A stretch of 64,000 bases of DNA, from the NCBI GenBank assembly GCA_038145405.1, contig JAYQPQ010000002.1:6535-70534 (forward strand), given 5' to 3'. Both the position numbers and the translations under genes were made by a program. How positions within the stretch are numbered: the first letter of the stretch is position 1; the number at the start of each line of letters is the position of its first letter. The DNA comes from Porticoccaceae bacterium. Its GTDB lineage: Bacteria; Pseudomonadota; Gammaproteobacteria; Pseudomonadales; GM7GCV1. A model generated the notes under the pieces. The model searched no databases. It was not told where the DNA came from and was given only the letters and a program-made list of their open reading frames with translations. Positions 4,674 through 41,945 of the stretch are shown in pieces.

Positions 4674-5239
4674 GCAGAGAGCTTGCGGTAGTTTTTGGAA
4701 AATTGGCCGCTGAGAAATTCCATCTGATCGGCGAGTATGCGCTTGCTGTTCACCAACGCCAGATACTCGGCCAAATTGGGACGATAGGGCAGCGCCAGCA
4801 GTTCGAGGCCGCATTCGTCGACACTGCGGTGTCCCTTGTGCTGATTGCAGCGTCGACAGGCCGCCACCACGTTCATCCAACTGTCCTTACCGCCGCGCGA
4901 TTTGGGCACGATGTGGTCGCGTGTCAGCTGGTGCTCGGCAAAAGGCTTGCCACAGTACATGCAGAAATAGCCGTCGCGTGCGAAGAGCGTGCGGTTGGTC
5001 AGGGGATAGGTACTGCGCGGCTTGATCAGCTTGTCGCCGGCACTGGCGATGATGCTAGGCACATCGACCACCGACTGTAGCCCAGTGCGGCGACACCAGC
5101 CGCCGCGCACGGTGCGCACCAGATCGCCGATGCTCCAGACCACGGCATCGCGCGAAAAGAGCACCACGGCCTCCTGCCAGTTGAGCCATTCCAGCGGCTG
5201 TCCGGAAGCATTGAGTCGAAGGATGCGGGGATCAGACAT
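4670..5239 (-). CDS. HNH endonuclease family protein
   Basis: CMYCGKPFAEHQLTRDHIVPKSRGG...NVVAACRRCNQHKG is an HNH motif with CxxC...CxxC. Its stop overlaps the purK stop on the opposite strand. Confidence 0.8.
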   Translation of the reverse strand: MSDPRILRLNASGQPLEWLNWQEAVVLFSRDAVVWSIGDLVRTVRGGWCRRTGLQSVVDVPSIIASAGDKLIKPRSTYPLTNRTLFARDGYFCMYCGKPFAEHQLTRDHIVPKSRGGKDSWMNVVAACRRCNQHKGHRSVDECGLELLALPYRPNLAEYLALVNSKRILADQMEFLSGQFSKNYRKLSA

Positions 5240-6677: not shown

Positions 6678-8567
6678 ATGCAGACATTCGATCAGATTCC
6701 CTCCACTCGCCCGGAAACGCTACTGCTGGACCGCCTCGAAAGCCCGGCCGATCTGCGTCAATTGAGCGAGGCCGAATTGCCGTTGCTGGCGGATGAACTG
6801 CGCGCCTTCCTGCTCTGGGTCGTCGGCCAAACCGGCGGCCACTTCGGCGCCGGGCTGGGTGTAGTCGAGCTGACCATCGCCCTGCATTTTGTCTTTGCCA
6901 CGCCCGACGACCGCCTGGTCTGGGATGTCGGCCACCAGGCCTATCCGCACAAGATACTCACCAGCCGCCGCGAAGCCATGCTGTCGCTGCGTCAGCGCGG
7001 CGGACTGGCCGGGTTCCCCAAGCGTGGCGAAAGCGAATACGACACCTTCGGCGTCGGCCACAGCAGTACCTCGATCAGCGCGGCTCTGGGCATGGCGCTG
7101 GCGGCGCGGCAACTGGGCGTTGCGCGCAAGCACGTGGCGGTCATCGGCGATGGCGCCATGACGGCCGGTATGGCCTTCGAGGCACTGAACCACACCGCAG
7201 GCAGCGCGGCCGACTTGCTGGTGGTGCTGAATGACAACCGCATGTCGATTTCCGAGAACGTCGGTGCGCTCTCAACCTATTTCTCGCGCATCTGGGCCAG
7301 CAAGCTCTACAACCAGATTCGGCGCGAGGGGCAAAAGGTGCTGTCGCGAATTCCGCCGGCATCCGAGTTTGTCCGCCGAACCGAAGAGCACATGAAGGGC
7401 ATGGTGTCGCCGGGGACTCTGTTTGAGGAAATGGGCTTCAATTACATCGGTCCCATCGACGGCCACAATCTCGAATTGCTGGTCGATACCCTAACCAATT
7501 TGCGCACCCTGTCCGAACCGGTGCTGTTGCACGTCATTACGCAGAAGGGTCGCGGCTACGCCCCAGCCGAGGCGGATCCCATCAGCTACCACTCCCTGAG
7601 CAAGCTCGAGCCACCCTCCACCGATAGCAACGGCCTGGCCAAACCCAAGGCGCCCAAATATCAGGACGTTTTTGGCGACTGGCTATGCGACATGGCGGCC
7701 CAGGATCAGCGTTTGCTCGGTATCACGCCTGCCATGCGCGAAGGCTCCGGCATGGTGGAATTTTCGCGCCGCTTTCCCGAGCGCTACCAGGACGTTGCGA
7801 TTGCCGAACAGCATGCCGTCACACTGGCAGCCGGCGCCGCTTGCGACGGCCTCAAGCCGGTTGTGGCAATTTACTCCAGCTTTTTGCAGCGCGCCTATGA
7901 CCAGCTGATCCACGACGTCGCCCTGCAGAACCTGGATGTGCTCTTTGCCCTGGATCGCGCTGGCCTGGTCGGCGAAGACGGGCCGACGCACGCCGGCGCC
8001 TTCGATCTGAGCTACCTGCGCTGTATTCCCAATTTGCTGGTGATGGCGCCATCGGACGAAAACGAAACGCGCCGTTTGCTCAGCACCGGATTCCTGCACG
8101 CTGGCCCAGCTGCGGTGCGCTACCCGCGTGGTGGCGGCACCGGCGTCGCCATTGAACCCGGGTTGGAACCGCTACCCATCGGCAAGGGCGTTCTGCGCCG
8201 CCAAGGCAAGGGACTGGCGCTGCTATGTTTTGGCGTAACGGTGCAGGCCGGCCTGAATGTGGCCGAGCAACTGGACGCCAGCCTGGCCGATATGCGCTTC
8301 GTAAAACCGCTCGACACCGAGTTGATCGGTCAGCTGGCCAGTCACCATACCGCCCTGGTCACCATCGAGGAAAACGCGGTAGCCGGCGGCGCCGGCTCAG
8401 CGGTCAATGAGTGGCTCGCGAGCCAGGGTATCCAGTTGTCTGTGCTCAACCTGGGCCTGCCCGACTACTTTATCGACCACGGCACCCGCGGCGAGGTGCT
8501 GGCCGAAGCTGGCCTGGACGCCGCCTCCCTGCATCAGCGCATTAGCCGCTGGCACAAGCCCGGCTAA
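6678..8567 (+). CDS. dxs: 1-deoxy-D-xylulose-5-phosphate synthase
   Basis: 629 aa with [29 protein letters not shown] and [16 protein letters not shown] thiamine-diphosphate motifs. Completes the xseB-ispA-dxs operon. Confidence 0.97.
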
Positions 8568-14158: not shown

Positions 14159-15892
14159 CTAAGGTGCGTCAAGGTCTTCAAAGGCCGTCGAATGCAATCG
14201 GGCATAGGCGCCATTCTTGGCCAGCAATTCCTTGTGGGTGCCGGCCTCGATAATCAGACCCTTCTCCATCACCAGAATCAGGTCGGCACGCTCAATGGTA
14301 GAGAGCCGATGCGCAATGACCAGGGTGGTGCGATCGCGCATGACCACTTCCATGGCCTGTTGAATGTGACGCTCCGACTCGGTATCCAGGGCGGCAGTGG
14401 CCTCATCCAGTATCAGGATGGGAGCGTCGCGCAAAATAGCACGGGCAATGGCCAGGCGTTGGCGCTGGCCACCGGACAGCAATACGCCGTTTTCACCCAC
14501 CAGGGTGTCGTAGCCCTGCGGCATTGCTTCGATAAAATCGTGGGCGTGAGCGGCTCGGGCTGCGGCGATAACCGCCTCGCGTGTTGCACCCTCCGTCGCG
14601 CCATAGGCCATGTTGTTGTGCACGCTGTCGTTAAACAGGACGACATCCTGCGACACCATGGCGAACTGCGCGCGAAGGTTGGCCAGGCGATAGGCTTCGA
14701 TGGGCTGACCGTCGAGAGAAATGCCGCCGCTATAGCCGCCATAAAAACGCGGCAGCAGATTGACCAGTGTAGACTTGCCGCTGCCGGATCGACCCACCAG
14801 CGCCACCATCTTGCCCTGCTCAATTTTAAGGTCGATGCCCTTGAGAGCTGGTTCGGACGCGCCGGGGTAGGTAAAGCGCAGCTGGCAAAATTCGAGTTCG
14901 CCGCGCACGCGCTTGACCTGCAGTTGACCCTCATCCGGTTCGCTGGGTGCATCCAGCATTTCAAAGATGGATTCGGCCGCTGCCACGCCCTTCTGAATTT
15001 GCCCATGCACCTCGCTAATCGAGCGCAACGATTTGGGTAACAGCGCTGCGGCGGTGAGGTAGGCAATCAGCACACCGGCCTCATAGTCTTCGCGCATGGT
15101 CAGCACCGCATACATGACTACCGACATGGCGGAAATCACCAGGAACTGCATGACCGGTGAGTTCAGGGCGTTGGTAAACTCAAACTTGAGGGCCTGACGC
15201 AGGTTTTCCTTGCTGGCCTGCATGAAGCGCTGGATCTCGCGCGATTCGCCGCCGTGAATACGCACAACGCGGTAGCCGGTGACGGTCTCCGAGGTGACTC
15301 GTGCGATGTCGCCCATGGCATTCTGAATGCGGCTACTGAGACGACGCATGCGGCGACCCACCCAGTTCACCAGAAAGCCGATCGCCGGTCCGATGCAAAC
15401 AAAGATCAGGGTGAGCTTCCAGTTGTTGTAAAGCAGGTAGGCAAACAGGGCGATCACCGTCATGCCCTCGCGAAACAGCACGGTGATGGCTTTGGTGGCA
15501 GCGTTGGTCACCATGTTCACATTAAAGGTGATTTTCGATACCAGATGCCCGGTATTCTGCCGATCGTAGTAGCTCGAGGGCAGCAACAGCATGTGGTTGA
15601 ACAAGGCGCAACGCAGGTCGTGCACCACCCCCTGGCCGACAAAGCTGATGAAATAGGTGCCGCCAAAACTGCCGAGTCCGCGCACCATAGCAATGACGAC
15701 GCCGGCCAGGGGAACCTGATAAACCAGGTTTTGCGGTCCCCCCTGCAGGGCCTCGACAAAGTATTGCATCAGAGCAGCGAAGGCGGGCTGGGACAAGGCA
15801 AAGAGCAGGTTGCCACCGATGCTGAGGGCGAACAGTCCGCTGTAGGGTTTGACGTAGGTCAGCAGACGCCGATAGGGGCTGGCTGGTTTCAT
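14159..15892 (-). CDS. msbA: ABC exporter, fused permease/ATPase, MsbA-like lipid A flippase
   Basis: 577 aa. Six-TM exporter domain followed by Walker A GRSGSGKST, signature LSGGQRQR and Walker B ILILDEATAALD. Confidence 0.8.
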   Translation of the reverse strand: MKPASPYRRLLTYVKPYSGLFALSIGGNLLFALSQPAFAALMQYFVEALQGGPQNLVYQVPLAGVVIAMVRGLGSFGGTYFISFVGQGVVHDLRCALFNHMLLLPSSYYDRQNTGHLVSKITFNVNMVTNAATKAITVLFREGMTVIALFAYLLYNNWKLTLIFVCIGPAIGFLVNWVGRRMRRLSSRIQNAMGDIARVTSETVTGYRVVRIHGGESREIQRFMQASKENLRQALKFEFTNALNSPVMQFLVISAMSVVMYAVLTMREDYEAGVLIAYLTAAALLPKSLRSISEVHGQIQKGVAAAESIFEMLDAPSEPDEGQLQVKRVRGELEFCQLRFTYPGASEPALKGIDLKIEQGKMVALVGRSGSGKSTLVNLLPRFYGGYSGGISLDGQPIEAYRLANLRAQFAMVSQDVVLFNDSVHNNMAYGATEGATREAVIAAARAAHAHDFIEAMPQGYDTLVGENGVLLSGGQRQRLAIARAILRDAPILILDEATAALDTESERHIQQAMEVVMRDRTTLVIAHRLSTIERADLILVMEKGLIIEAGTHKELLAKNGAYARLHSTAFEDLDAP

Positions 15893-16671
15893 TACCCGGC
15901 TTCCTGAGCGTCGAGCAAATGGGGGGTCACGCGGAAAACCTCTTCAATGGTGGTATCGCCGCGGGCGACTTTCAGTGCGCCCGCATAGCGCAGATGGTGC
16001 CAGCCGCTGCGTACGGCCTCGCTGCGCGCGGCGTCCAAATCGCTTTGATCCTGGATCTGGTTGCGCTGGCGATCGGGAATCAGAAGCTCATAGATGCCCT
16101 GGCGGCCCCGATAGCCGGTGTTGCGGCACTCCAGGCAACCTCCAGCCGCATAAAGCTGTGCCTGCATCGGCAAAGCGTCGCCAACCAGCGAGCACCAGGC
16201 GCCGGCCTCTGCCGGTACCTGCCGACGACAGGCGGTACAAAGCCGGCGAACCAGGCGCACCTTGCGTCGGGTCATCTGTTCGATACTGCTGACCCAGTCG
16301 GTGCGATCCGGCCTGGCCGTCGCAATCACAATGGCTTTGGCTGTGCTCTCCACACAGAGAATCTGATGGCTCTTGGCAAAGCCAAAGCTCATCACTGCGG
16401 TGGTTTTCTCGACGTCGATGGACAGCGGATTAATACTGACAAAGGGAATCGCCAGACGCTCGGCGAGCCATTGGGTGAGCAGGCCTGAACTGAGGCGTCG
16501 ACTTGGTTGGCGGCGATCGACCAAATCCATGCGACTGAGCGCCAGGATGGGATGCTGTTGGGTCGATCCGCCCTGAGCGCGGCGAGCATCTGCCTGGTCG
16601 ATAATGCCTTCCTCAACCAGGTCACGTACCAGGGAACCCAGCGCAATCTTGGTAGTGGTGGATGCCGTCAC
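15892..16671 (-). CDS. GspE/PilB-family secretion ATPase-like ORF retaining only the N-terminal domain and the C-terminal tetracysteine module (no ATPase core)
   Basis: The N-terminal part resembles the T2SS/T4P ATPase N-domain. The C-terminal part has RLVRRLCTACRR...GGCLECRNTGYRGRQGIYELL...TTIEEVFRVT. No Walker A/B, Asp or His boxes. The stop overlaps the msbA ATG (TAATG). Confidence 0.6.
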   Translation of the reverse strand: MTASTTTKIALGSLVRDLVEEGIIDQADARRAQGGSTQQHPILALSRMDLVDRRQPSRRLSSGLLTQWLAERLAIPFVSINPLSIDVEKTTAVMSFGFAKSHQILCVESTAKAIVIATARPDRTDWVSSIEQMTRRKVRLVRRLCTACRRQVPAEAGAWCSLVGDALPMQAQLYAAGGCLECRNTGYRGRQGIYELLIPDRQRNQIQDQSDLDAARSEAVRSGWHHLRYAGALKVARGDTTIEEVFRVTPHLLDAQEAG

Positions 16672-16737: not shown

Positions 16738-17889
16738 ATGCCGAAACGACTACCACCGCTCGACCAGATGCTCGACCGCCTGATTGCCCACCCCTCGGTC
16801 AGTTCGACTCAGAAGGAGCTGGATAGCGGCAACCGCGCGGTCATCGATGAACTCGCCAATTGGCTTGGCGATCTGGGATTTCGTATCGATATCCATCCGC
16901 TTTGCGCCGATGGTCAGAAGGCGAATCTGGTAGCGCGTCTTAGTCAGGGCGAAGGCGGGCTGATTTTTTCCGGCCATACCGATACGGTTCCCTGCGACGA
17001 AAACCTCTGGCAGTCCGACCCCTTCCGTGCCACCCGCACGGACGCCGGGTTCCGTGGCCTGGGTGCCACGGATATGAAGGGCTTTTTCGCCGTCGTGCTG
17101 GAGGCGCTGCAGGATATTCCGCTACATCAGTTACAGCAGCCGCTAACCCTGGTGGCTACGGCAGATGAGGAGTCCAGCTTTGCCGGTGCCAAGGCGCTGG
17201 GCGATCTGGATTTGCCGCGCCAGGCTGGCGTCATTATTGGTGAGCCGACCGATATGCGGCCGGTTAATCTGCACAAGGGCATCATGATGGAAGCTATCCG
17301 GGTCACCGGAGTGGCCGGTCACTCTTCCGATCCAAGCCTGGGCATCAATGCACTTGAGGTCATGGGGGAGGTGCTTGGAGAACTGCTGGCCTTTCGTCAG
17401 CAGCTGCAGTCGACCTACCGCCACGAAGGCTTCAGCCTGCCTATGCCGACACTGAACCCGGGTTGCATTCACGGCGGCGACAACCCCAACCGCATTTGCA
17501 GCAAATGTGAAATCCAGTTTGATCTGCGCCTGATTCCGGGAATGCAGCCAGGGGAACTGCAGCAGGCTATCGATGAACGGCTGCTGCCGATTGCCAAGCG
17601 CTGGCAGGTTCCCATCGAGCGTCGCAGCCTGCTCGATCCCGTGCACGCCTTTGAACAGCCCCCTGAATCCGAACTGGTACGTCAGCTATCGGCGCTCACC
17701 GGCCAAGCTCCGCGCGCGGTAGCCTTCGCCACCGAGGCGCCCTTTTACCAGCAGCTCGGCCTGGACACCCTAATCCTGGGTCCCGGTTCCATCAGCCAGG
17801 CGCACCAAGCCAATGAGATGATCTCGCTCGAGCAGATAGAACAGGGCAAAGATATTTATCAGAAAATCATCAGAAAGTTCTGTTTTTAG
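16738..17889 (+). CDS. argE: acetylornithine deacetylase
   Basis: M20 peptidase family; LIAHPSVSS...ANLVARL...LIFSGHTDTVP...GATDMKGF and 383 aa fit ArgE. Confidence 0.9.
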   Translation: MPKRLPPLDQMLDRLIAHPSVSSTQKELDSGNRAVIDELANWLGDLGFRIDIHPLCADGQKANLVARLSQGEGGLIFSGHTDTVPCDENLWQSDPFRATRTDAGFRGLGATDMKGFFAVVLEALQDIPLHQLQQPLTLVATADEESSFAGAKALGDLDLPRQAGVIIGEPTDMRPVNLHKGIMMEAIRVTGVAGHSSDPSLGINALEVMGEVLGELLAFRQQLQSTYRHEGFSLPMPTLNPGCIHGGDNPNRICSKCEIQFDLRLIPGMQPGELQQAIDERLLPIAKRWQVPIERRSLLDPVHAFEQPPESELVRQLSALTGQAPRAVAFATEAPFYQQLGLDTLILGPGSISQAHQANEMISLEQIEQGKDIYQKIIRKFCF

Positions 17890-17912: not shown

Positions 17913-17940
17913 TTTTAATAAACACTTTGTTTTATTAAAA
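17913..17940. promoter_or_regulatory. AT-only near-perfect inverted repeat (candidate operator) immediately upstream of argA
   Basis: TTTTAATAAAC-acttt-GTTTTATTAAAA: arms of 11 and 12 nt with one unpaired A. It sits in the 50-bp AT-rich argE-argA spacer. A stem with no G:C pairs makes it an unlikely terminator. Confidence 0.35.
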
Positions 17941-19469
17941 TGCGCATCTCTCCCCGGGAGCGCACCATGGATCACTATCTGGCTCAACTGGAAAATTGGC
18001 GCAAGGCACAGAGCGGCAAGAAGGCCCGCAAGGTGTATATGGCCGAACAGCTGGGCTTACCCAGCGTTACCAACTACACCAATTGGCTGCGTCGAGGCAG
18101 CTTGCCGAAGGCCTACATCGATAAGGCGCGTACCTTTCTCGAGCAGCAGGCTAGTGGTCAGTTTGCCTTCAGCACCCTGGACTCCGGCTTTATCAGCCGG
18201 TTTCGCCATGCCGCGCCCTACATTCAGGCACACCGGGATCGGGTGGTGGTGGTGGCCATGCCAGGCGACGCCTTCGATTCCCCGGTTTTCGATCATCTGA
18301 TTCACGATCTCGCTCTGCTCGCCTGTCTAGGAATCAAGCTGGTGATTGTGCACGGCGCGCGCGCGCAAATTGACGCCAGCCTCGAGCGGGCCGGCCTGGT
18401 GACTCGCATTGTCGAACAGATTCGCGTCACCGAGGATGATCAACTTCCCTTGGTGGTGCAGTCGATTAACGATCTGACCACACGTCTGCTGTCTGCCTTC
18501 AGCACCGGCCTGCCAAATACGCCGCGCTTTGGTGTTCAGCTGTCAGTGATGAGCGGCAATTTCGTTGTTGCCCGCCCCATGGGCGTTCGACATGGCGTCG
18601 ATTTTCAGCACACCGGCGTCGTGCGGCAGATCCAAGCGGATCGCATCCGCTCCGCCATCGACAACGGCAATATTGTTATCGTGCCTTCCCTTGGTTACTC
18701 GCTGACCGGCGAGCTGTTCAATCTGGGTATTCAGGATCTGGTGTCTGAGATCGCTATGACGCTCCGCGCTGACAAGCTCATTTGTTTAACCACGGCACGG
18801 GTGATTGGGCAACTCGAATTGGGCGCCGGCACGGTGATAGATGCCGGCGAACTCGAGCGCATCATGAATCACCTGGAGGAGCCTGCAGCACTGCTGCAGT
18901 CGATCACTCCCAAGGTGCTGGGCAGCGGTTGCCGCTGCCACCTGATTGATTTCAATTCGGATGGCGCATTGCTGCAGGAGCTGTTCACACCCGAGGGCCA
19001 GGGCGTGATGGTAGTGGACGAGGACTATCAGAAATTGCGCAAGGCCAACATTGAAGATATCGGTGGCATTCTGGACTTGATTCGCCCGCTGGAGGATCGC
19101 GGCGTGCTGGTCAAGCGCTCACGCGACCTGATCGAGCGCCACATCGACTATTATATGGTGATCGAGTGCGATGCCATGATCGTGGCCTGTGGCGCCATGA
19201 TTCCCTATAGCACGCATACTGCAGAACTGGCCTGCATCGCCACGCATCCTGGATTCAGCAACCAGGGCCTGGGCCGTCGGCTGGTAGACGCGCTGGTAAG
19301 CATGGCGCGCAAGGGAGGCATGAAACGCGTCTTTACTCTCACCACCGAGGGCGAGCACTGGTTTATTGAGCGCAGCTTTCGCGAAGCCAGTCTGTACGAT
19401 CTGCCCGACGAGAAAAAGCAGGCCTACAACTACCAGCGCAACTCCAAGGTGCTGATTCGCGAAATCTGA
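17940..19469 (+). CDS. argA: amino-acid N-acetyltransferase (N-acetylglutamate synthase) with extra N-terminal HTH-like segment
   Basis: The core from FISRFRHAAPYIQAHRDRVVVVAM to YNYQRNSKVLIREI follows ArgA (amino-acid kinase domain plus GNAT). ATG 17967 (MDHYL...) has the best Shine-Dalgarno (GGGAG, 6-nt spacing). Even the latest possible ATG (18039) leaves about 50 extra residues. Confidence 0.9.
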   Translation: MRISPRERTMDHYLAQLENWRKAQSGKKARKVYMAEQLGLPSVTNYTNWLRRGSLPKAYIDKARTFLEQQASGQFAFSTLDSGFISRFRHAAPYIQAHRDRVVVVAMPGDAFDSPVFDHLIHDLALLACLGIKLVIVHGARAQIDASLERAGLVTRIVEQIRVTEDDQLPLVVQSINDLTTRLLSAFSTGLPNTPRFGVQLSVMSGNFVVARPMGVRHGVDFQHTGVVRQIQADRIRSAIDNGNIVIVPSLGYSLTGELFNLGIQDLVSEIAMTLRADKLICLTTARVIGQLELGAGTVIDAGELERIMNHLEEPAALLQSITPKVLGSGCRCHLIDFNSDGALLQELFTPEGQGVMVVDEDYQKLRKANIEDIGGILDLIRPLEDRGVLVKRSRDLIERHIDYYMVIECDAMIVACGAMIPYSTHTAELACIATHPGFSNQGLGRRLVDALVSMARKGGMKRVFTLTTEGEHWFIERSFREASLYDLPDEKKQAYNYQRNSKVLIREI

Positions 19470-32384: not shown

Positions 32385-33278
32385 ATGCACCCACTTCTCA
32401 AGTTACTGGCCACCGACCTGAAGCGTCATAAACGCATCGGACCGTACTGGCGTCTGATGCGTCTCGACCGCCCGGTGGGAACCTTGCTGATTCTCTGGCC
32501 CACTCTGGTCGGTCTGTGGCTGGCCACTGCAGGTCACCCGCCGCTGGGCCTGCTGGTAATCTTTGTAGTCGGCACCTTCCTGATGCGCGCAGCAGGTTGT
32601 GTGATCAATGATTTTGCCGACCGTCGAGTGGATGGCGCGGTGGAGCGCACGCGCACGCGCCCGCTGGCCACCGGCGAACTGCAACCGCAGCAGGCACTGC
32701 GCCTCTTTGTGTTGCTCTGTGTACTGGCTTTCGGACTGGTGCTCTTCACCAATTGGCTGACGATTGGCATGTCGTTAATTGGTGCATTGCTCGCTGCGAT
32801 CTACCCCTTCCTCAAGCGCTTCACCCACCTGCCGCAGGTCTGGCTCGGCATGGCCATGAACTGGGGTATTGTCATGGCCTGGACGGCAGGAACCGCTACC
32901 TTGGGTCGCGAAATCTGGGAGTTCTATCTGGCCGCTCTGTGCTGGACGGTAGCCTACGACACCTGCTACGCCATGGTGGATCGCGAGGACGATCTGCGCA
33001 TTGGGGTGAAATCCATCGCCATTCTGTTTGGCGACCTGGATCGCGCCATGATCGGGCTGCTGCAGTTACTCTGCCTGATGGCTCTGGCCCTGGGTGGCAA
33101 AGCCTTTGAACTAGGTCCGGTCTACCATCTGGCGCTGCTGACCATCGCAGCGCTATTCGGTTATCAGCAGTGGCTGATTCGCGGGCGCCAGCGCGATGCC
33201 TGTTTCGCTGCCTTCATGAACAATCGCTGGGTGGGGCTGGCGATGTTCCTCGGCGTCGGGCTGCACTACCTGTTGTGA
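32385..33278 (+). CDS. ubiA: 4-hydroxybenzoate polyprenyltransferase
   Basis: YWRLMRLDRPVGTLLILWPT...AGCVINDFADRRVDGAVERTRTRPLA (UbiA prenyltransferase Asp-rich motif). Confidence 0.93.
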   Translation: MHPLLKLLATDLKRHKRIGPYWRLMRLDRPVGTLLILWPTLVGLWLATAGHPPLGLLVIFVVGTFLMRAAGCVINDFADRRVDGAVERTRTRPLATGELQPQQALRLFVLLCVLAFGLVLFTNWLTIGMSLIGALLAAIYPFLKRFTHLPQVWLGMAMNWGIVMAWTAGTATLGREIWEFYLAALCWTVAYDTCYAMVDREDDLRIGVKSIAILFGDLDRAMIGLLQLLCLMALALGGKAFELGPVYHLALLTIAALFGYQQWLIRGRQRDACFAAFMNNRWVGLAMFLGVGLHYLL

Positions 33279-34411
33279 AGCTGGACATTCTGGATCGCCT
33301 GGACGCCGTCTCCCCGGCACGCTGGCAGAGCCTGGTGGGCTCCGACACACCCTTTACCTGCCACAGGTTTCTGTCTGCATTGGAAAGCTCGGGCTGTGTT
33401 TCAGCAGCGACCGGCTGGCAGCCTCACCATCTGACCTGGCACCAGAGCGGTGAGGTACAGGCGGTGATGCCCTGCTACCTTAAGCATCACTCTTACGGGG
33501 AGTATGTTTTCGACTGGAGCTGGGCCGACGCCATGCAGCAATTGGGCCGATCTTATTTCCCCAAGCTGGTAACGGCCATTCCCTTTACGCCGGTTACTGG
33601 ACCTCGCCTGTTGAGGGCGCCGGGCCTGCAGCCAAATGAATTGGTTGCGCAGGCCATGGACTGGTTGCACAGCACCCTGCCGCAGCGCGGCATTTCCAGC
33701 TTTCACCTGCTGTTTGCCGAGGACGACCTGGCAGCACCGCTGCAGGCGTCCGGTCTGGCCGAGCGTCAGGCCGTGCAGTTTCTCTGGCGCAACCCGGGCT
33801 ACGGCAGCTTCGAGGATTTTCTGGGCCTGATGAAATCCGCCAAACGCAAGCAGATCCGGCGCGAGAGAGCGCGGGTAGCGGAGCAGGGCATCGAGATACG
33901 ACGCTTTCTGGCTGACGACCTGAGCCTGGACGTCCTGGCCATCTTTCTGGCCTGCTATCAGGACACCTACCTCAAGCGTTCCGGACACAGCGGTTATCTG
34001 AATGAGGCCTTTTTTCAATCGCTTTGGCTGCACATGCGCGACCGCATATTGCTGCTGGTCGCGCAGCGTGGGGGTCAGCCGCTCGCCAGTGCGCTTTTTC
34101 TGTTCGACCAGAGCGGCCTTTACGGTCGCTATTGGGGCGCGCTGGAGCCGGTCGACTGTCTGCATTTTGAGCTCTGCTACTATCAGGGCATCGACTTTGC
34201 CATCGAGCGCGGTCTGCCCTGCTTCAATCCCGGCACCCAGGGCGAACACAAGTTGATGCGCGGATTCGAACCGGTTCTCAGCCGCTCCTTTCATTGGATT
34301 GCCGAGCCCGCCTTTCACCAGGCGGTATGTCAGGCCACCCGTCGCGAGCGCACCCGGGTGCAGGCCTATGCCGAGGCGGCACGGCATCATCTTCCCTTTC
34401 GCCACGCATGA
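33275..34411 (+). CDS. FemAB/GNAT-like acyltransferase family protein (DUF482-type), function unknown
   Basis: About 378 aa from GTG 33275, which overlaps the ubiA TGA (GTGA). FLSALESSGCV...YGEYVFDWSWA...FYGRYWG pattern recalled from the DUF482 family. Assignment made by memory only. Confidence 0.65.
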   Translation: MKLDILDRLDAVSPARWQSLVGSDTPFTCHRFLSALESSGCVSAATGWQPHHLTWHQSGEVQAVMPCYLKHHSYGEYVFDWSWADAMQQLGRSYFPKLVTAIPFTPVTGPRLLRAPGLQPNELVAQAMDWLHSTLPQRGISSFHLLFAEDDLAAPLQASGLAERQAVQFLWRNPGYGSFEDFLGLMKSAKRKQIRRERARVAEQGIEIRRFLADDLSLDVLAIFLACYQDTYLKRSGHSGYLNEAFFQSLWLHMRDRILLLVAQRGGQPLASALFLFDQSGLYGRYWGALEPVDCLHFELCYYQGIDFAIERGLPCFNPGTQGEHKLMRGFEPVLSRSFHWIAEPAFHQAVCQATRRERTRVQAYAEAARHHLPFRHA

Positions 34412-37104: not shown

Positions 37105-38571
37105 ATGACCGCAAACTCCGCCGAATCGGTGCGCTGGGAGAATCTGTATCGCCAGCTCGGGCCCGCCTTCCACACAGCCATTCGGCCAGCGCCGCTGAAC
37201 AATGCCCGTCTGGTCCACCTCAACGCGGAACTGGCAGGCCAGCTGAGGCTGGATGGCGCCCATGCGGAGCAGCTGCTACGCCAATTCAACGGCGAAACGC
37301 CGCTCGATGGGCGCGAACCCCTGGCTAGCCTCTATGCGGGACACCAGTTCGGCAGCTGGGTCAGTCAGCTGGGCGATGGCCGCGCTGCACTGATTGGCCA
37401 ACGCCGCGATGCCGCAGGTCAATTGTGGGATATCCAGAGCAAGGGCTGCGGCCCGACCCCCTACTCGCGTCATGCCGATGGACGCGCCGTGTTGCGGTCC
37501 TGTATCCGCGAGTATCTGTGCAGTGAATCCATGCACGGCCTGGGCATTCCCACCACCCGCGCACTGGCGCTGCTGGATTCGGACACCCCCGTCTATCGGG
37601 AGCAGGTCGAACGCGGTGCCATCCTGGTGCGCGTTGCCGAATCCCATCTGCGCTTCGGCCATTTCGAGGTGTTCGCTTCGCGTCAGCAAAAGGATGAGGT
37701 TCGGGTGCTGGCCGACTACCTCCTCGCACATCACTTTGCCCATCTGGCCGATGTGTCCGACCCTTATCTGGCGCTTTATCGGGAAGTGCTCGAACGCAGC
37801 GCCGACCTGATGGCTCAGTGGCAGGCGGTTGGCTTTTGTCATGGCGTGATGAACACCGACAACATGTCGATCCTGGGCCTGACCCTGGATTACGGCCCCT
37901 TCGGCTTCATGGAGGAATACGATCCGGCCCACATCTGCAACCACTCCGACTTCCAGGGCCGCTACGCCTACCAGGCGCAACCCCGGGTGGCCCATTGGAA
38001 TCTGGCCTGTCTCGGCCAGGCGCTGCTCGACCTGATCGACTTCGAGGCGGCGCAGGCAGTGCTGCAAAGCTTTCCCGCCCGCTTTGCCGACGCCTATCAG
38101 CGGCGCATGGCGCCCAAGCTCGGGTTATCAGCGCAGGATCCCGAGCTGGAAGGGCTATTGAACGGCTGGCTGAATTTACTGGCGGCGCATCGCGTCGACT
38201 TCACCCTGGCTTTCCGCCGCCTGGCGGAGCTGGCAGCGGGGGACGCCCTTGCCGAGGCCTGGCTGGAAGACGCCCTGCAGGCAGATCCTGCCTGGCAGCT
38301 GTGGCGCGAGAACTATCTGCGCAGGCTGCGCGTCGAGTCGGGGAGCGTCGAGAAGCGTGTGCAAGCCATGTTCATGGCCAACCCACTGTATATTCTGCGC
38401 AATGCCTTTGCCCAACGCGCGATTGAGCGCGCGGAGCACGGCGACTACGGCGAGATCAATCGGCTGTTTCACCTGCTGCGCCATCCCTATCAGGCGCAAG
38501 CCGACGGCAACCCTTATGAAAATCCGGCGCCGCAACAGGAGCGTCACCTCGCTGTCAGCTGCTCGTCCTAG
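37105..38571 (+). CDS. selO: protein adenylyltransferase SelO (YdiU)
   Basis: LYAGHQFGSWVSQLGDGRA...SKGCGPTPYSRHADGRAVLRSCIREYLCSE...GVMNTDNMSILGLTLDYGPFGF. Confidence 0.92.
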   Translation: MTANSAESVRWENLYRQLGPAFHTAIRPAPLNNARLVHLNAELAGQLRLDGAHAEQLLRQFNGETPLDGREPLASLYAGHQFGSWVSQLGDGRAALIGQRRDAAGQLWDIQSKGCGPTPYSRHADGRAVLRSCIREYLCSESMHGLGIPTTRALALLDSDTPVYREQVERGAILVRVAESHLRFGHFEVFASRQQKDEVRVLADYLLAHHFAHLADVSDPYLALYREVLERSADLMAQWQAVGFCHGVMNTDNMSILGLTLDYGPFGFMEEYDPAHICNHSDFQGRYAYQAQPRVAHWNLACLGQALLDLIDFEAAQAVLQSFPARFADAYQRRMAPKLGLSAQDPELEGLLNGWLNLLAAHRVDFTLAFRRLAELAAGDALAEAWLEDALQADPAWQLWRENYLRRLRVESGSVEKRVQAMFMANPLYILRNAFAQRAIERAEHGDYGEINRLFHLLRHPYQAQADGNPYENPAPQQERHLAVSCSS

Positions 38572-40442
38572 CGGGTGGCGAGCGGAACTTCCAGGGCAAA
38601 CAGCACGCCGCTGCCGTCGGCAAGATTGACAGCGGTCAACTTGCCGCCGTGAAATTCGGCAATGCGTCGGGCAATGCTCAAGCCCAGACCCAGGTGGCCG
38701 TCAGCCGCCTTCTCAGCCGGCCGCAGGGACACCATGGAAGCAAAGATGTCCTGCTCTGCTCCCTCGGGCAGCAGGGGTCCCCTATTGGTGATCGACATGC
38801 GCCAGATATCGCCGAGGCGTCCCGACTGTACCCGAATTTCGGTGCCCGGCTCGGCAAAGCTCAATGCATTCTCCACCAGCTTGTCGACCAGCTGGGCCAG
38901 CAGGTCGGGCGAGCCATCGAGCCGCCCCCCACGCGCTTCGTCCAGTGCACGATAAGTCACCCGCGCCTGCGGAAAGGCCTGGCCGTAGGCGGCGACCAGC
39001 TCCCTGATCAGGGCATCCGCATCAAAATTGCAGCGCGCGGTGCGCTCGATGCCCGACTCCAGAGAATTGGCTTCGGCCATGCTGCGCAGCATCTTGCGCA
39101 GGCGCTCAATGCCCTGGCGTGCGCGTTCGGCAAAGACTGCTCGCTCCTCCGGGTCGTCGGCGCTGTCCAGGTTGTCGAGGGAAGAGCCGATGATAGTGAG
39201 CGGGGTGCGCATTTCATGCGACAGACGACCCGCCATGCCCTCCATATAGTCCGTATATTTTTGCAGCCGCCGGGTGAGCTGGGCATAGGCCCGCGTCAGC
39301 TCACCCAGTTCGTCGGCGGAGCGGGACGGTGCAAAATCACCATCGACCCGGCCGTGCTCATCGATTAGCCCATGCGTCCAGCGACTGAGCTGGCGCAGGC
39401 GGCGGGACAGCCAGCCGGCATAGGCAAACAAACCCGCCAACACCAGCACCAACAACCCCAGGCTGGCGAGAAGCCACTGCCTGAGCAAATCCGCATAGAG
39501 TTGCAGAAAGCTGTGCAGCTCGCTTTGCAGCACCAGTCGACCTACAGCGAGACCCGAAATTCGCACCGGCAGGCGCAGTTCCAGTTGCGGCGCAGTTCCG
39601 TCCCAGATCCAGACAACCTCACCCGAGCCCTGATCCAGACTGGCGTCGAACTGACGAGGCAGCCAGCGAGCTGCCGAGGTCGACCAGCGCGAAGGGGAAA
39701 CAAATTCGGGAACGGATCCAGCGGCGGCAACTTCCCAGCCGTCGGTGGTAAGAAATGCCAGTCTGGTGCCTCCATCGGCAAAGACACTCAGGTCATCCTG
39801 CAAGCCTTCCGGCTGTGTTATCCAGGCCAGCGGCTTGCCCTGACTCCCCAGACCCCAACTCCGATTCGCCGTGCCCAGCGCCGCCAGGGTCAGACCCACC
39901 TGCGGGCCAATCTGACTGGTTGGAAAAGCTAATTCCAGGACCAGCTGTTCGCCGCGTACCTGCCAGCGACCCAGCACGCCAAGAGCTCGATAGGCCGGCT
40001 CCGGTTGCAACAAGCCATCCAGTTGCAACTCGAGTTCGATGCGTGCCGCACCGGTCCACAATGCCATCTGCACCTCACCGGGCGCTCGCGCTGGCAGTCG
40101 TGTCCCGAGAAAAAGCGTGTCGCCGACACGAAGTCGATACAGCTCTGGAACGCCCTGCGGTGCTGCGGGCTGCAGCGGCCAGTCGGCGAGATCGCCGTCG
40201 ACCAGGGGCGGCTGCGGTGCCGACGGAAAATAGATGCGCTGGCTGCTATCGAGCTGAATCAGATCGCGAAACTGCTCTGGCTGCGACTGCAGATAGGCAA
40301 CGATGAGTTGGGCACGGGCGCGCTGGGCGTCGAGCTCACCCTGCAACAACAGACCGACCAGTTGAGAAAATACCTGATAGCCGGCCCAGGGCAATGCCAG
40401 CAGCAGCAGGCTCAGTAACAGGAGCTGGCGACTGAGGCTCAA
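38568..40442 (-). CDS. sensor histidine kinase with a periplasmic domain of about 300 aa
   Basis: TM1 (LLLLSLLLLALPWAG), a large extracytoplasmic region, TM2 (LLASLGLLVLVLAGLFAYAGW), H-box RLSHEMRTPLT, and HATPase (GLGLSIARRIAEFHGG). The TTG start overlaps the regulator TGA (TTGA). Confidence 0.85.
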   Translation of the reverse strand: MSLSRQLLLLSLLLLALPWAGYQVFSQLVGLLLQGELDAQRARAQLIVAYLQSQPEQFRDLIQLDSSQRIYFPSAPQPPLVDGDLADWPLQPAAPQGVPELYRLRVGDTLFLGTRLPARAPGEVQMALWTGAARIELELQLDGLLQPEPAYRALGVLGRWQVRGEQLVLELAFPTSQIGPQVGLTLAALGTANRSWGLGSQGKPLAWITQPEGLQDDLSVFADGGTRLAFLTTDGWEVAAAGSVPEFVSPSRWSTSAARWLPRQFDASLDQGSGEVVWIWDGTAPQLELRLPVRISGLAVGRLVLQSELHSFLQLYADLLRQWLLASLGLLVLVLAGLFAYAGWLSRRLRQLSRWTHGLIDEHGRVDGDFAPSRSADELGELTRAYAQLTRRLQKYTDYMEGMAGRLSHEMRTPLTIIGSSLDNLDSADDPEERAVFAERARQGIERLRKMLRSMAEANSLESGIERTARCNFDADALIRELVAAYGQAFPQARVTYRALDEARGGRLDGSPDLLAQLVDKLVENALSFAEPGTEIRVQSGRLGDIWRMSITNRGPLLPEGAEQDIFASMVSLRPAEKAADGHLGLGLSIARRIAEFHGGKLTAVNLADGSGVLFALEVPLATR

Positions 40443-41128
40443 GCGGTGTCCGACCAGCGATAGCCCATACCATAGGCTGTCTTGATGGCATCAAAGCCGG
40501 TGTCCACCTGCTGGAATTTCTGGCGAATGCGCTTGATATGACTGGTAATGGTGCCCTCGTCGAGAACCACCTTAGCGGCGTCCATCAACTGTTGCCGGCT
40601 GCGCAGATGGCCGGGGTGCCGCGCCAGCGCATGCACCATCCAGAATTCCGTCAGCGTCAGATCCAGGGCCTGTCCGCGCCAACTGGCCGACATGCGGTCG
40701 AGATCGAGCAACAGGTCGCCGCGTTCCAGCCGCTCTTCCTGTGGTTGATTGTCCTGCTGGCTGCGTCGCAACAGGGCGGATACCCGCGCCAGCAACTGCT
40801 GCTGACTGACATCCTTGCTGACGTAGTCATCGGCGCCTACGCGCAATCCCGAGACCACGTCGTAGTCCGAGTCCCTGGCCGAAAGGATAATGATGGGCAG
40901 TTGCGCCGAACGGCTGCGCAGATCGCGGCATAGTTCGAAGCCGCCCTCGAGGTCGTCGCCTAGCCCGATATCCAGAATGGCCAGGTCGGGCAAGCCGATC
41001 TGGAATGCCTGCTGGGCTTCCTGGCGAGAGGCGAAGGTCTGCACCCGATAGCCCTGGCGGCCGAGCATGGCCGCATAGTTGGCTGCGATAGCTGGCTCGT
41101 CTTCGACGATGACTATGCGACTCTTCAC
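40439..41128 (-). CDS. OmpR-family response regulator
   Basis: From GTG 41128: KSRIVIVEDEPAIAANY...DLAILDIGLGDD...ILSARDSDYD plus a winged-helix domain (LTLTEFWMVHALARHPG...YGMGYRW). The 351-aa ORF-track version is an over-extension into the OmpA gene. Confidence 0.88.
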   Translation of the reverse strand: MKSRIVIVEDEPAIAANYAAMLGRQGYRVQTFASRQEAQQAFQIGLPDLAILDIGLGDDLEGGFELCRDLRSRSAQLPIIILSARDSDYDVVSGLRVGADDYVSKDVSQQQLLARVSALLRRSQQDNQPQEERLERGDLLLDLDRMSASWRGQALDLTLTEFWMVHALARHPGHLRSRQQLMDAAKVVLDEGTITSHIKRIRQKFQQVDTGFDAIKTAYGMGYRWSDTA

Positions 41129-41252
41129 GTCCCACCCCAGGTCTTCAATGGCCCACCATGGTAACCAAATTTGTGCGGGCTCCACAGCACGTCGCACCCA
41201 GAAAAAAGGGCCGCCGGAGGGCGCGGCCCGAAGGGGACAGAGGGAAAAGGAC

Positions 41253-41945
41253 TCAGGGATCCATGGCAACGGCATTGGTAGTTTCGCCGACCTGGAACAC
41301 CTCGATCTCGACGCGGCGCTGCAGAGCGAAGGTATCGAGGTCATAGCTGGCACCGGTGGGCATGCTGGCACCATGGTGGAAAATGGCGATGCGGCTCTTG
41401 GGTACGCCAAGCTGATTGAGTGCGGCGGCGACGTTCTGGGCGCGGTACATGGCAAGGACGTTGTTGTACTCATCCGTGCCTCGTGGGTCGGCATAGCCGT
41501 CCAGTCGTACCTGCAAATCGGGATTGCGTATCAGGTAGCCGGCGAGCATCTTGAGTCGCTCGAAATCTTCGCTGTTCAACTCGTCGGTGCCGGTGGCAAA
41601 CATCACCTGAAAAGCCAGACGCGAGTACAGCGCCGAGCTCATGTCATCGAGCCTTAGTTCCAGCTGATCAATTTGCTGACGCTGGCGATGGCTTTCCTCG
41701 GCGACGCGATTGCGCTCCCGTTCGACCTGGCCGAGTCGGTCCGCTCGTTCGATGTGCTCACCCAGCCAGCCGCCCCCGGCGGCGCCGAATACCATTCCCA
41801 CCGGTCCGGCGGCCAGCGTACCGGCCAAGGTCGTGGTGAATAGCGTTAGCCCCTGTTTCCAGGCCGTGCTTGTTTCGATTGGGTCGGTGTTGGTGTCTGC
41901 CAGTGCAAGGCTGGGCAGAAGCAGAAGGATCAGTGCTTTGTTCAT
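41253..41945 (-). CDS. OmpA-family protein (signal peptide, Gly-rich hydrophobic segment, coiled coil, OmpA_C domain)
   Basis: MNKALILLLLPSLALA signal, GPVGMVFGAAGGGWLG, coiled coil ERERNRVAEESHRQRQQIDQLELRL, then VMFATGTDEL...VRLDGYADPRGTDEYNNVLAMYRAQNV. Confidence 0.85.
   Translation of the reverse strand: MNKALILLLLPSLALADTNTDPIETSTAWKQGLTLFTTTLAGTLAAGPVGMVFGAAGGGWLGEHIERADRLGQVERERNRVAEESHRQRQQIDQLELRLDDMSSALYSRLAFQVMFATGTDELNSEDFERLKMLAGYLIRNPDLQVRLDGYADPRGTDEYNNVLAMYRAQNVAAALNQLGVPKSRIAIFHHGASMPTGASYDLDTFALQRRVEIEVFQVGETTNAVAMDP

Follow-up and report, generated by a model that had tools for sequence, protein, structure and literature searches.

Analysis of a 64,000-nucleotide stretch of DNA from a Porticoccaceae bacterium (assembly GCA_038145405.1, contig JAYQPQ010000002.1, positions 6,535 to 70,534 of the forward strand; hereafter the window, with positions counted from its first letter) indicates that its argA gene encodes an N-acetylglutamate synthase (NAGS) preceded by a helix-turn-helix (HTH) head of the kind found in Cro/CI repressors. 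We consider it probable that this protein, called HTH-ArgA here, is an autoregulatory enzyme-repressor that joins a Cro/CI-type head (most similar to those of phage CI-position proteins), a linker and a complete NAGS and regulates its own gene. For this protein we infer DNA binding, repression, pairing of the heads by the ArgA hexamer and dependence on arginine. The autoregulation reading gains support because a palindrome conserved in the spacer between argE and argA recurs in phage immunity regions together with homologs of the head.

Start codon and translation of the extension

The open reading frame (ORF) at 17940..19469 on the forward strand of the window is 509 amino acids (aa) long and encodes ArgA. 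Its residues 82-508 align to positions 7-440 of the NF003641 profile, leaving about 66-75 residues ahead of the usual ArgA N-terminus. An earlier note on this DNA, made from the sequence alone, had claimed such an extension and had remarked that all usable start codons lie far upstream of the core. Both statements hold; the window sequence contains no in-frame ATG, GTG or TTG between 18039 and the ArgA core. Among the start codons that the note had offered, ATG 17967 with its GGGAG Shine-Dalgarno is conserved, and ATG 17940 and ATG 18039 are not. All eight extension-bearing protein clusters begin with MD at the position matching ATG 17967. In the DNA of L001-L008, an in-frame stop lies 0-6 nucleotides (nt) upstream of the MD start in four orthologous loci; the start codon is GTG in five, and a GGAG-type Shine-Dalgarno is found about 6-7 nt upstream in six of the first eight loci. 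ATG 17940 is in frame in this genome only and overlaps a conserved TAAAAT/TTTAAT box, the methionine at 18039 (Met34 of the 509-aa ORF) is replaced by Leu or Ile in orthologs, and an internal start for a separate ArgA core was rejected because the linker has no conserved ATG, GTG or TTG. By this comparison of orthologs the argA start is ATG 17967, neither 17940 nor 18039, and the protein begins MD and has 500 aa. The gene is laid out as follows (pI, isoelectric point).

17956..17960 (+): Shine-Dalgarno GGGAG, 6 nt ahead of ATG 17967
17967..19469 (+): HTH-ArgA coding sequence, 500 aa plus stop, from the conserved start ATG 17967
17967..18149 (+): N-terminal Cro/CI-type HTH domain, aa 1-61, five helices, pI about 10
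18066..18095 (+): predicted recognition helix VTNYTNWLRR, aa 34-43, with the invariant GSLPKAY coming next
18150..18191 (+): linker, aa 62-75, variable and probably flexible
18192..19466 (+): classical ArgA core (N-terminal helix, amino-acid-kinase domain and GNAT domain), aa 76-500

A total of 5.8 billion proteins were searched and yielded 5215 ArgA relatives at E<=1e-10. Among the matches listed, eight clusters carry the extension (68-100% identity, 496-500 aa). The other 112 listed (<=48% identity), mostly of 430-456 aa with two of about 473 aa, show it in none of those that were aligned or inspected. Two further extension-bearing loci were taken from metagenomes. The extension is present at nine distinct argE-argA loci (the eight protein clusters plus L013), where enzyme and HTH domain lie in one polypeptide encoded by a single, conserved and uninterrupted ORF. 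Metagenome matches L014-L018 were discarded as spurious and of low complexity, and other long ArgA proteins (P0091, P0102, P0063 and P0056) turned out to have unrelated N-termini. Two scans of the GTDB species-representative genomes found the head encoded in none. As far as databases show, HTH-ArgA is confined to a single lineage of uncultured marine gammaproteobacteria, which the GTDB species representatives do not include.

The extension contains no stop codon in any ortholog, and the insertions and deletions of the poorly conserved linker are in frame only, altering its length by 3-4 aa in L007 and L008. Counting by Nei-Gojobori across every pair of orthologs gave a ratio of nonsynonymous to synonymous differences per site (pN/pS) of 0.25 for residues 2-61, 0.56 for the linker and 0.20 for the ArgA core. 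For residues 26-50, the segment AEQLGLPSVTNYTNWLRRGSLPKAY, the ratio is 0.058 with a pS of 0.74, that is, with synonymous sites near saturation, and across orthologs this segment shows switches between the AGC and TCN codon families of Ser and between the CGN and AGG codons of Arg. The recognition helix (aa 34-43) and the following GSLPKAY show little or no variation among the eight protein clusters. The G+C content at third codon positions (GC3) is 0.68 in the extension and 0.71 in the core, in agreement with the bias that the earlier note had read from the sequence, and the overall G+C content of the argE-argA spacer is 0.39. On these measures the extension is translated and under purifying selection. 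The survey of ArgA N-termini in relatives points the same way as the note, with orthologs keeping the extension at the nine loci and a syntenic sister clade being without it.

Family and fold of the N-terminal head

The segment AEQLGLPSVTNYTNWLRRGSLPKAY had been read as having the helix, turn and recognition-helix spacing of an XRE/Cro-type HTH. This reading is supported: the near-invariance of the segment, the purifying selection on it, profile matches to repressor families and the predicted fold all identify it as the helix-turn-recognition-helix of a Cro/CI (XRE)-type five-helix domain. A direct model match for residues 1-85 was not obtained, as Pfam gave none at E<=1. In the NCBIfam scan of the window head nothing was significant (the sole match was carph-isopro, E 0.063), the PHROG scan gave no significant match, and sequence-profile searches of the PDB with the head returned only XRE-type matches, at E 0.3-1.4. 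Because the window head has no direct Pfam HTH match, its homology to HTH domains is transitive.

The connecting family was recovered with a profile of the eight ArgA heads. In an exhaustive HMMER search of 1.84 billion representative proteins, this profile matched 36 at E<1e-3, the stand-alone members having E-values of 3e-7 to 8e-4. A word-indexed protein search found nothing with profile A2 and only 10 small proteins with profile A3. Apart from four repeat proteins, the members of the family are 90-250 aa long and have the domain N-terminally. In five, a Peptidase_S24 domain lies at the C-terminus; the three of these that were scanned against PHROGs match phrog_4 'transcriptional repressor' along their whole length, and three Peptidase_S24 members show weak similarity to LexA. 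In the S24 proteins the domain therefore sits where LexA/CI-type repressors have their DNA-binding head.

An alignment of 40 sequences has the pattern L..LE.WR...G..K..MA..LG....NY.NW..RGSLPK.Y, and the family-invariant Y37, N39, W40, R43, S45, P47 and K48 are all retained in the ArgA heads. When the 40 members were scanned one by one against Pfam, HTH_3 (PF01381) was matched by 19, with a best E-value of 8e-6; the other matches were to Phage_CI_repr (9), YdaS (8), HTH_31 (8) and HTH_19 (7).

Structure prediction agrees with the sequence comparison. The AlphaFold2 model of the head, built from the 40-sequence alignment, has five helices (residues 3-13, 17-20, 22-29, 34-43 and 48-62) and a predicted local distance difference test score (pLDDT) of 96.6. 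It is closest to Cro/c2-type HTH proteins: the best Foldseek match in the PDB is Xfaso-1 Cro (template modelling score, TM, 0.64; probability 0.90), further best PDB matches are N15 Cro on its operator, P22 c2 on its operator, HigA2, ImmR, Aca2 and C.Esp1396I, and in BFVD the head is matched best by phage HTH and CI proteins, at TM up to 0.77. In a full-length monomer model the linker has a pLDDT below 50 and the first ArgA helix is of low confidence, consistent with a head on a tether. The pI is 9.2-10.3 for the basic head and 5.4-6.5 for the acidic core.

The head subfamily itself (P0122-P0162; LE.WR...G.TK..MA..LG....NY.NW..RGSLPK) has no above-threshold Pfam or NCBIfam model and is rare, with 36 representatives among the 1.84 billion proteins. 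Among the partners of the head are Peptidase_S24, a DUF4224/excisionase-like domain (P0128) and short acidic tails.

The ArgA core

The whole protein scores above the equivalog cutoffs of both NF003641 (494.3 bits; cutoff 344) and TIGR01890 (447.1; cutoff 202.85). Pfam finds AA_kinase (PF00696, E 4.5e-18) in the core, followed by a GNAT domain (Acetyltransf_1, PF00583, E 3.8e-9, and PF13508), and residues 73-499 align to the Neisseria gonorrhoeae NAGS (ngNAGS) structure 2r8v at E 1e-74. By these alignments the core is a complete classical N-acetylglutamate synthase.

about 18243-18794 (+): amino-acid-kinase domain (Pfam AA_kinase)
18978..19007 (+): arginine-binding loop motif ELFTPEGQGV, by alignment to ngNAGS
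about 19125-19346 (+): GNAT domain (Pfam Acetyltransf_1)

The published motif of the arginine loop is E-[LI]-[FM]-[TS]-x-x-G-x-G-T, with K201 and E270 as key residues (PMC4490483). ELFTPEGQGV fits nine of its ten positions, the final Thr being replaced by Val, and the arginine-site Lys of ADKL and Glu of ELFT are invariant in the alignment. The core probably still binds arginine.

A conserved palindrome between argE and argA

The argA gene directly follows argE. This gene order is kept in all orthologous loci, with a spacer of 78-88 nt.

16738..17889 (+): argE (acetylornithine deacetylase; NF003474, 514 bits), directly upstream of argA
17913..17941 (+): putative argA promoter, with a -35-like TTTTAA at 17913-17918, a -10-like TAAAAT at 17936-17941 and a 17-nt spacer
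17920..17932 (no strand): candidate operator, palindrome AAACA-CTT-TGTTT, with its centre 41 nt upstream of the start codon

In the nine orthologous loci the spacers have diverged apart from one block, TTTnAAAnAAACAnTnTGTTTGnTTTAAT. Its core is AAACA-N3-TGTTT, in which positions +/-2 to 6 are complementary in 8-9 of the nine loci, and the palindrome is present in all nine with its centre 38-44 nt before the start codon. The 64-kb window contains one exact match, with 0.05 expected; five of 100 shuffles gave a match. The palindrome is absent from the argE-argA spacers of the syntenic sister clade without the head (3/3). This nearest headless ArgA clade has 48% identity and shows the same gene order, namely aminotransferase, MshEN/T2SS-E ATPase, argE, argA, TPR, TonB, ExbD and ExbB.

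The palindrome falls inside the 17-nt spacer between the -35-like and -10-like boxes, and the TTTAAT/TAAAAT box is conserved in all loci. We infer the argA promoter at 17913..17941 from its sequence. A sigma-54 promoter was rejected by eye, there being no GG at the -24 position. The palindrome was also rejected as a terminator, as its 5-base-pair stem is AT-rich and the terminator scan found no terminator-like site in the argE-argA spacer. No ARG-box-like sequence was found near argE or argA, and Rfam and tRNA scans of the window gave no matches.

Two further features of the spacer were observed. The palindrome extends in this genome to perfect 10-nt arms, TTTTAATAAA and TTTATTAAAA (17913-17940), which have a half-base offset from the conserved inner palindrome and overlap the -35-like and -10-like boxes; the AT-richness of these arms makes their significance uncertain. 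In the argA leader (17941-17965), short GC-rich inverted repeats, TGCGC...GCGCA, flank the Shine-Dalgarno, and equivalent repeats are found in L002 (GAGCGCC...GGCGCTC) and L005 (GAGCG...CGCTC). The repeats could pair into a small hairpin masking the Shine-Dalgarno, a weakly supported structure with an alignment fold of -3.9 kcal/mol and one covarying pair.

Phage contigs with the same palindrome

A stand-alone homolog of the head (P0158, 108 aa) is encoded at the CI position of the phage contig L019. The module is arranged in lambdoid style: P0158 is divergent from a gene for a Cro-like protein of 69 aa, which is followed by DnaT-like and lambda-P-like genes, and the divergent region of 100 nt contains AAAACAtagTGTTTT, AAACAcatTGTTT and AAAACtttttGTTTT. 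Allowing up to one mismatch, the 10-kb locus has eight palindrome sites where 0.64 would be expected, and none of 200 shuffles reached eight. Six of the eight sites form two intergenic triplets, an arrangement that resembles the OR and OL operators of lambda. The triplets lie at 4925-4990 and 7895-7980, on either side of the CI-position and Cro-like genes, with sites spaced by 23 and 18 nt and by 23 and 43 nt, respectively. On an independent viral contig, L024, another homolog of the head is divergent from a Cro-like gene, and an exact AAACACATTGTTT lies between them (cluster 7975-8040) beside two sequences that, by eye, resemble degenerate copies. The head family is therefore associated with AAACA-N3-TGTTT, the same palindrome that precedes argA.

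Scanning the viral contigs with the NYTNW DNA pattern found nothing and the NYNNW variant found L024 only; scans with P0132, P0156 and P0126 found nothing. Viral-contig matches of P0141 (L022 and L023) were set aside as generic CI-like proteins with a different head. L019 and L024, both from uncultured phages, look as if they hold an undescribed immunity system whose operator code can be read.

Proposed mechanism

In classical NAGS, the kinase-like domains nucleate a hexamer with interlaced N-terminal helices from neighbouring subunits, and arginine binding shifts the N-terminal helix and reshapes the ring (PMC4490483). In HTH-ArgA, oligomerisation via the kinase-like domains would give a hexamer whose interlaced N-terminal helices bring the HTH heads together in pairs. 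Such a pair would repress argA transcription by binding AAACA-N3-TGTTT between its -35-like and -10-like boxes. A linker of about 14 residues separates the head from the helix that arginine moves, so operator occupancy may depend on arginine.

Several observations weigh against this reading. The head has no match at E<=1 in residues 1-85 among the curated HTH models of Pfam, and the Foldseek E-values, 0.2-10, are not significant, as expected for a 63-residue domain. The ArgA-type head also departs from the phage heads by a three-residue insertion between helices 1 and 2, and reads TNYTNW where they have QNY(N/T)NW and LRR where they have VYR. Each argA locus has one copy of the palindrome, whose half-sites are short and AT-rich and lie within an AT-rich spacer. 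The -35 box is weak; because it matches the consensus at only 3/6 positions, the promoter scan called no promoter, and argA may also be transcribed by read-through from argE. The phage evidence comes from two lineages, and their Cro-like proteins carry a similar YNW..RG.PK helix, so which phage protein reads the palindrome is a matter of presumption; CI and Cro share operators in lambdoid phages. Finally, the hexamer geometry and the arginine effect are carried over, by analogy, from the literature on other NAGS enzymes.

A bolder form of the proposal, in which HTH-ArgA is the arginine sensor-repressor of its lineage, is possible although we hold it doubtful. In this form the head is captured from a phage, the helix moved by arginine switches operator binding, one site serves both inhibition and repression, and the regulon may be wider and replace ArgR.

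Alternative explanations

If the protein is not a pure autoregulator, it could be a wider arginine-responsive regulator that acts on several arginine genes and replaces or supplements ArgR. Such a role would suit the retained arginine-binding site, the lack of an ARG-box-like sequence near argE and argA and the lack of argR among the 20 ORFs of the window that were annotated; however, the 64-kb window and each orthologous contig have one palindrome apiece, with none upstream of argE, and we regard the wider role as unlikely. Somewhat less likely still is that the HTH fold serves a role other than DNA binding, such as protein docking or stabilisation of the oligomer, with the palindrome acting as a promoter element or being bound by a different regulator. 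Some HTH folds mediate protein contacts, as in RodZ, which binds MreB through an XRE-type HTH, and this option draws as well on the head being below threshold for every curated HTH model and on the single palindrome per locus. It sits poorly with the retention of all residues that are invariant across the repressor-like family, with the strongly basic head, with the occurrence of the palindrome at 9/9 loci with the head vs 0/3 without it, and with the same motif in operator-like clusters beside the phage homologs.

The two remaining explanations deny either the head or the enzyme. The protein might be a pure regulator with a dead ArgA scaffold as arginine sensor, as enzyme-derived sensor domains are known in other regulators. 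We give this very little credence, as the core exceeds the ArgA equivalog cutoff by a wide margin, shows purifying selection (pN/pS of 0.20), retains the residues invariant across ArgA and is encoded at the syntenic argA position adjoining argE, as in relatives. That the extension is an annotation artefact, an untranslated leader or a separate small gene misjoined to argA, would agree with most ArgA proteins being without it, but is effectively refuted by the absence of stops in any ortholog and the in-frame nature of all indels, by a pN/pS of 0.06-0.25 at saturated synonymous sites, by the lack of a conserved internal start before the core and by the conservation of the start and Shine-Dalgarno at 17967. 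An autoregulatory enzyme-repressor is the reading that we favour.

Other genes of the window

Upstream of argE, at 15892-16671 (-), lies a gene for an MshEN/T2SS-E (TfpB-like) ATPase of only 259 aa, in which an MshEN-like N-terminus is fused to the final ~110 residues of the ATPase (profile positions 470-583 of 584). In L002 and L009 the gene at the syntenic position encodes 591-594 aa, and in L005 it is reduced to a 65-aa ORF, so the short gene looks like an internal deletion or a gene decaying in part of the clade. A histidine kinase and a response regulator of the 'proteobacterial dedicated sortase system' (TIGR03785 and TIGR03787) are encoded at 38568-41491 (-); the longest ORF of the response regulator has about 120 extra N-terminal residues, which may be an over-long start call. 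The 413-aa ORF at 33170-34411 (+) has no NCBIfam match at E<=1e-25.

Comparison with known systems

HTH-ArgA shares with classical NAGS (NF003641/TIGR01890; 2R8V) the amino-acid-kinase and GNAT domains, the N-terminal helix FRHAAPYIQAHR, the arginine-site Lys and Glu, the ELFT..G.G loop and the position adjoining argE, and differs in the 61 extra N-terminal residues that form an HTH domain and in the linker. The NAGS architectures covered in a review are classical NAGS, NAGS/K, S-NAGS, ArgH-fused NAGS, ArgO and C-NAGS, none of which has a DNA-binding domain (PMC4490483), and the HTH-ArgA fusion was not found in our literature searches. A DNA-binding module on ArgA had been suspected to be an unusual architecture, and the review and these searches bear this out.

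With the Cro/CI (XRE) heads of phage CI-position and S24 repressors, HTH-ArgA has in common the five-helix fold, the pattern LE.WR...G..K..MA..LG....NY.NW..RGSLPK, a basic surface and the association with AAACA-N3-TGTTT palindromes. It differs from them in the insertion between helices 1 and 2 described above and in the partner of the head, which is a metabolic enzyme instead of an S24 peptidase or a short tail. BirA (group II), PutA, NadR and the archaeal RbkR likewise carry an N-terminal DNA-binding head on an enzyme of the regulated pathway and have an operator in a promoter of the pathway or in their own promoter, which here is only a candidate; both the enzyme family and the HTH family are different, the head of HTH-ArgA seemingly coming from a phage-type repressor family. 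Such 'trigger enzymes' with a DNA-binding domain fused to them are a concept found in PMC4016012 and PMC5397151. ArgR is a hexameric arginine-binding repressor of an arginine biosynthesis promoter, a role that we propose for HTH-ArgA too; unlike ArgR, HTH-ArgA has no Arg_repressor domain by Pfam and NCBIfam, its site is not an ARG box and its arginine-binding fold is unrelated.

In the textbook system, arginine biosynthesis is controlled by ArgR at transcription and by allosteric inhibition of ArgA or ArgB. If our reading is true, an allosteric enzyme with a DNA-reading head and its own operator would merge both layers of control into one protein. HTH-ArgA would then be a new NAGS architecture, would newly join BirA, PutA and NadR as an enzyme fused to a DNA-binding domain, and would show clearly how a phage repressor module can be recruited to metabolic control. 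The specific guess of AAACA-N3-TGTTT as operator makes this idea directly testable.

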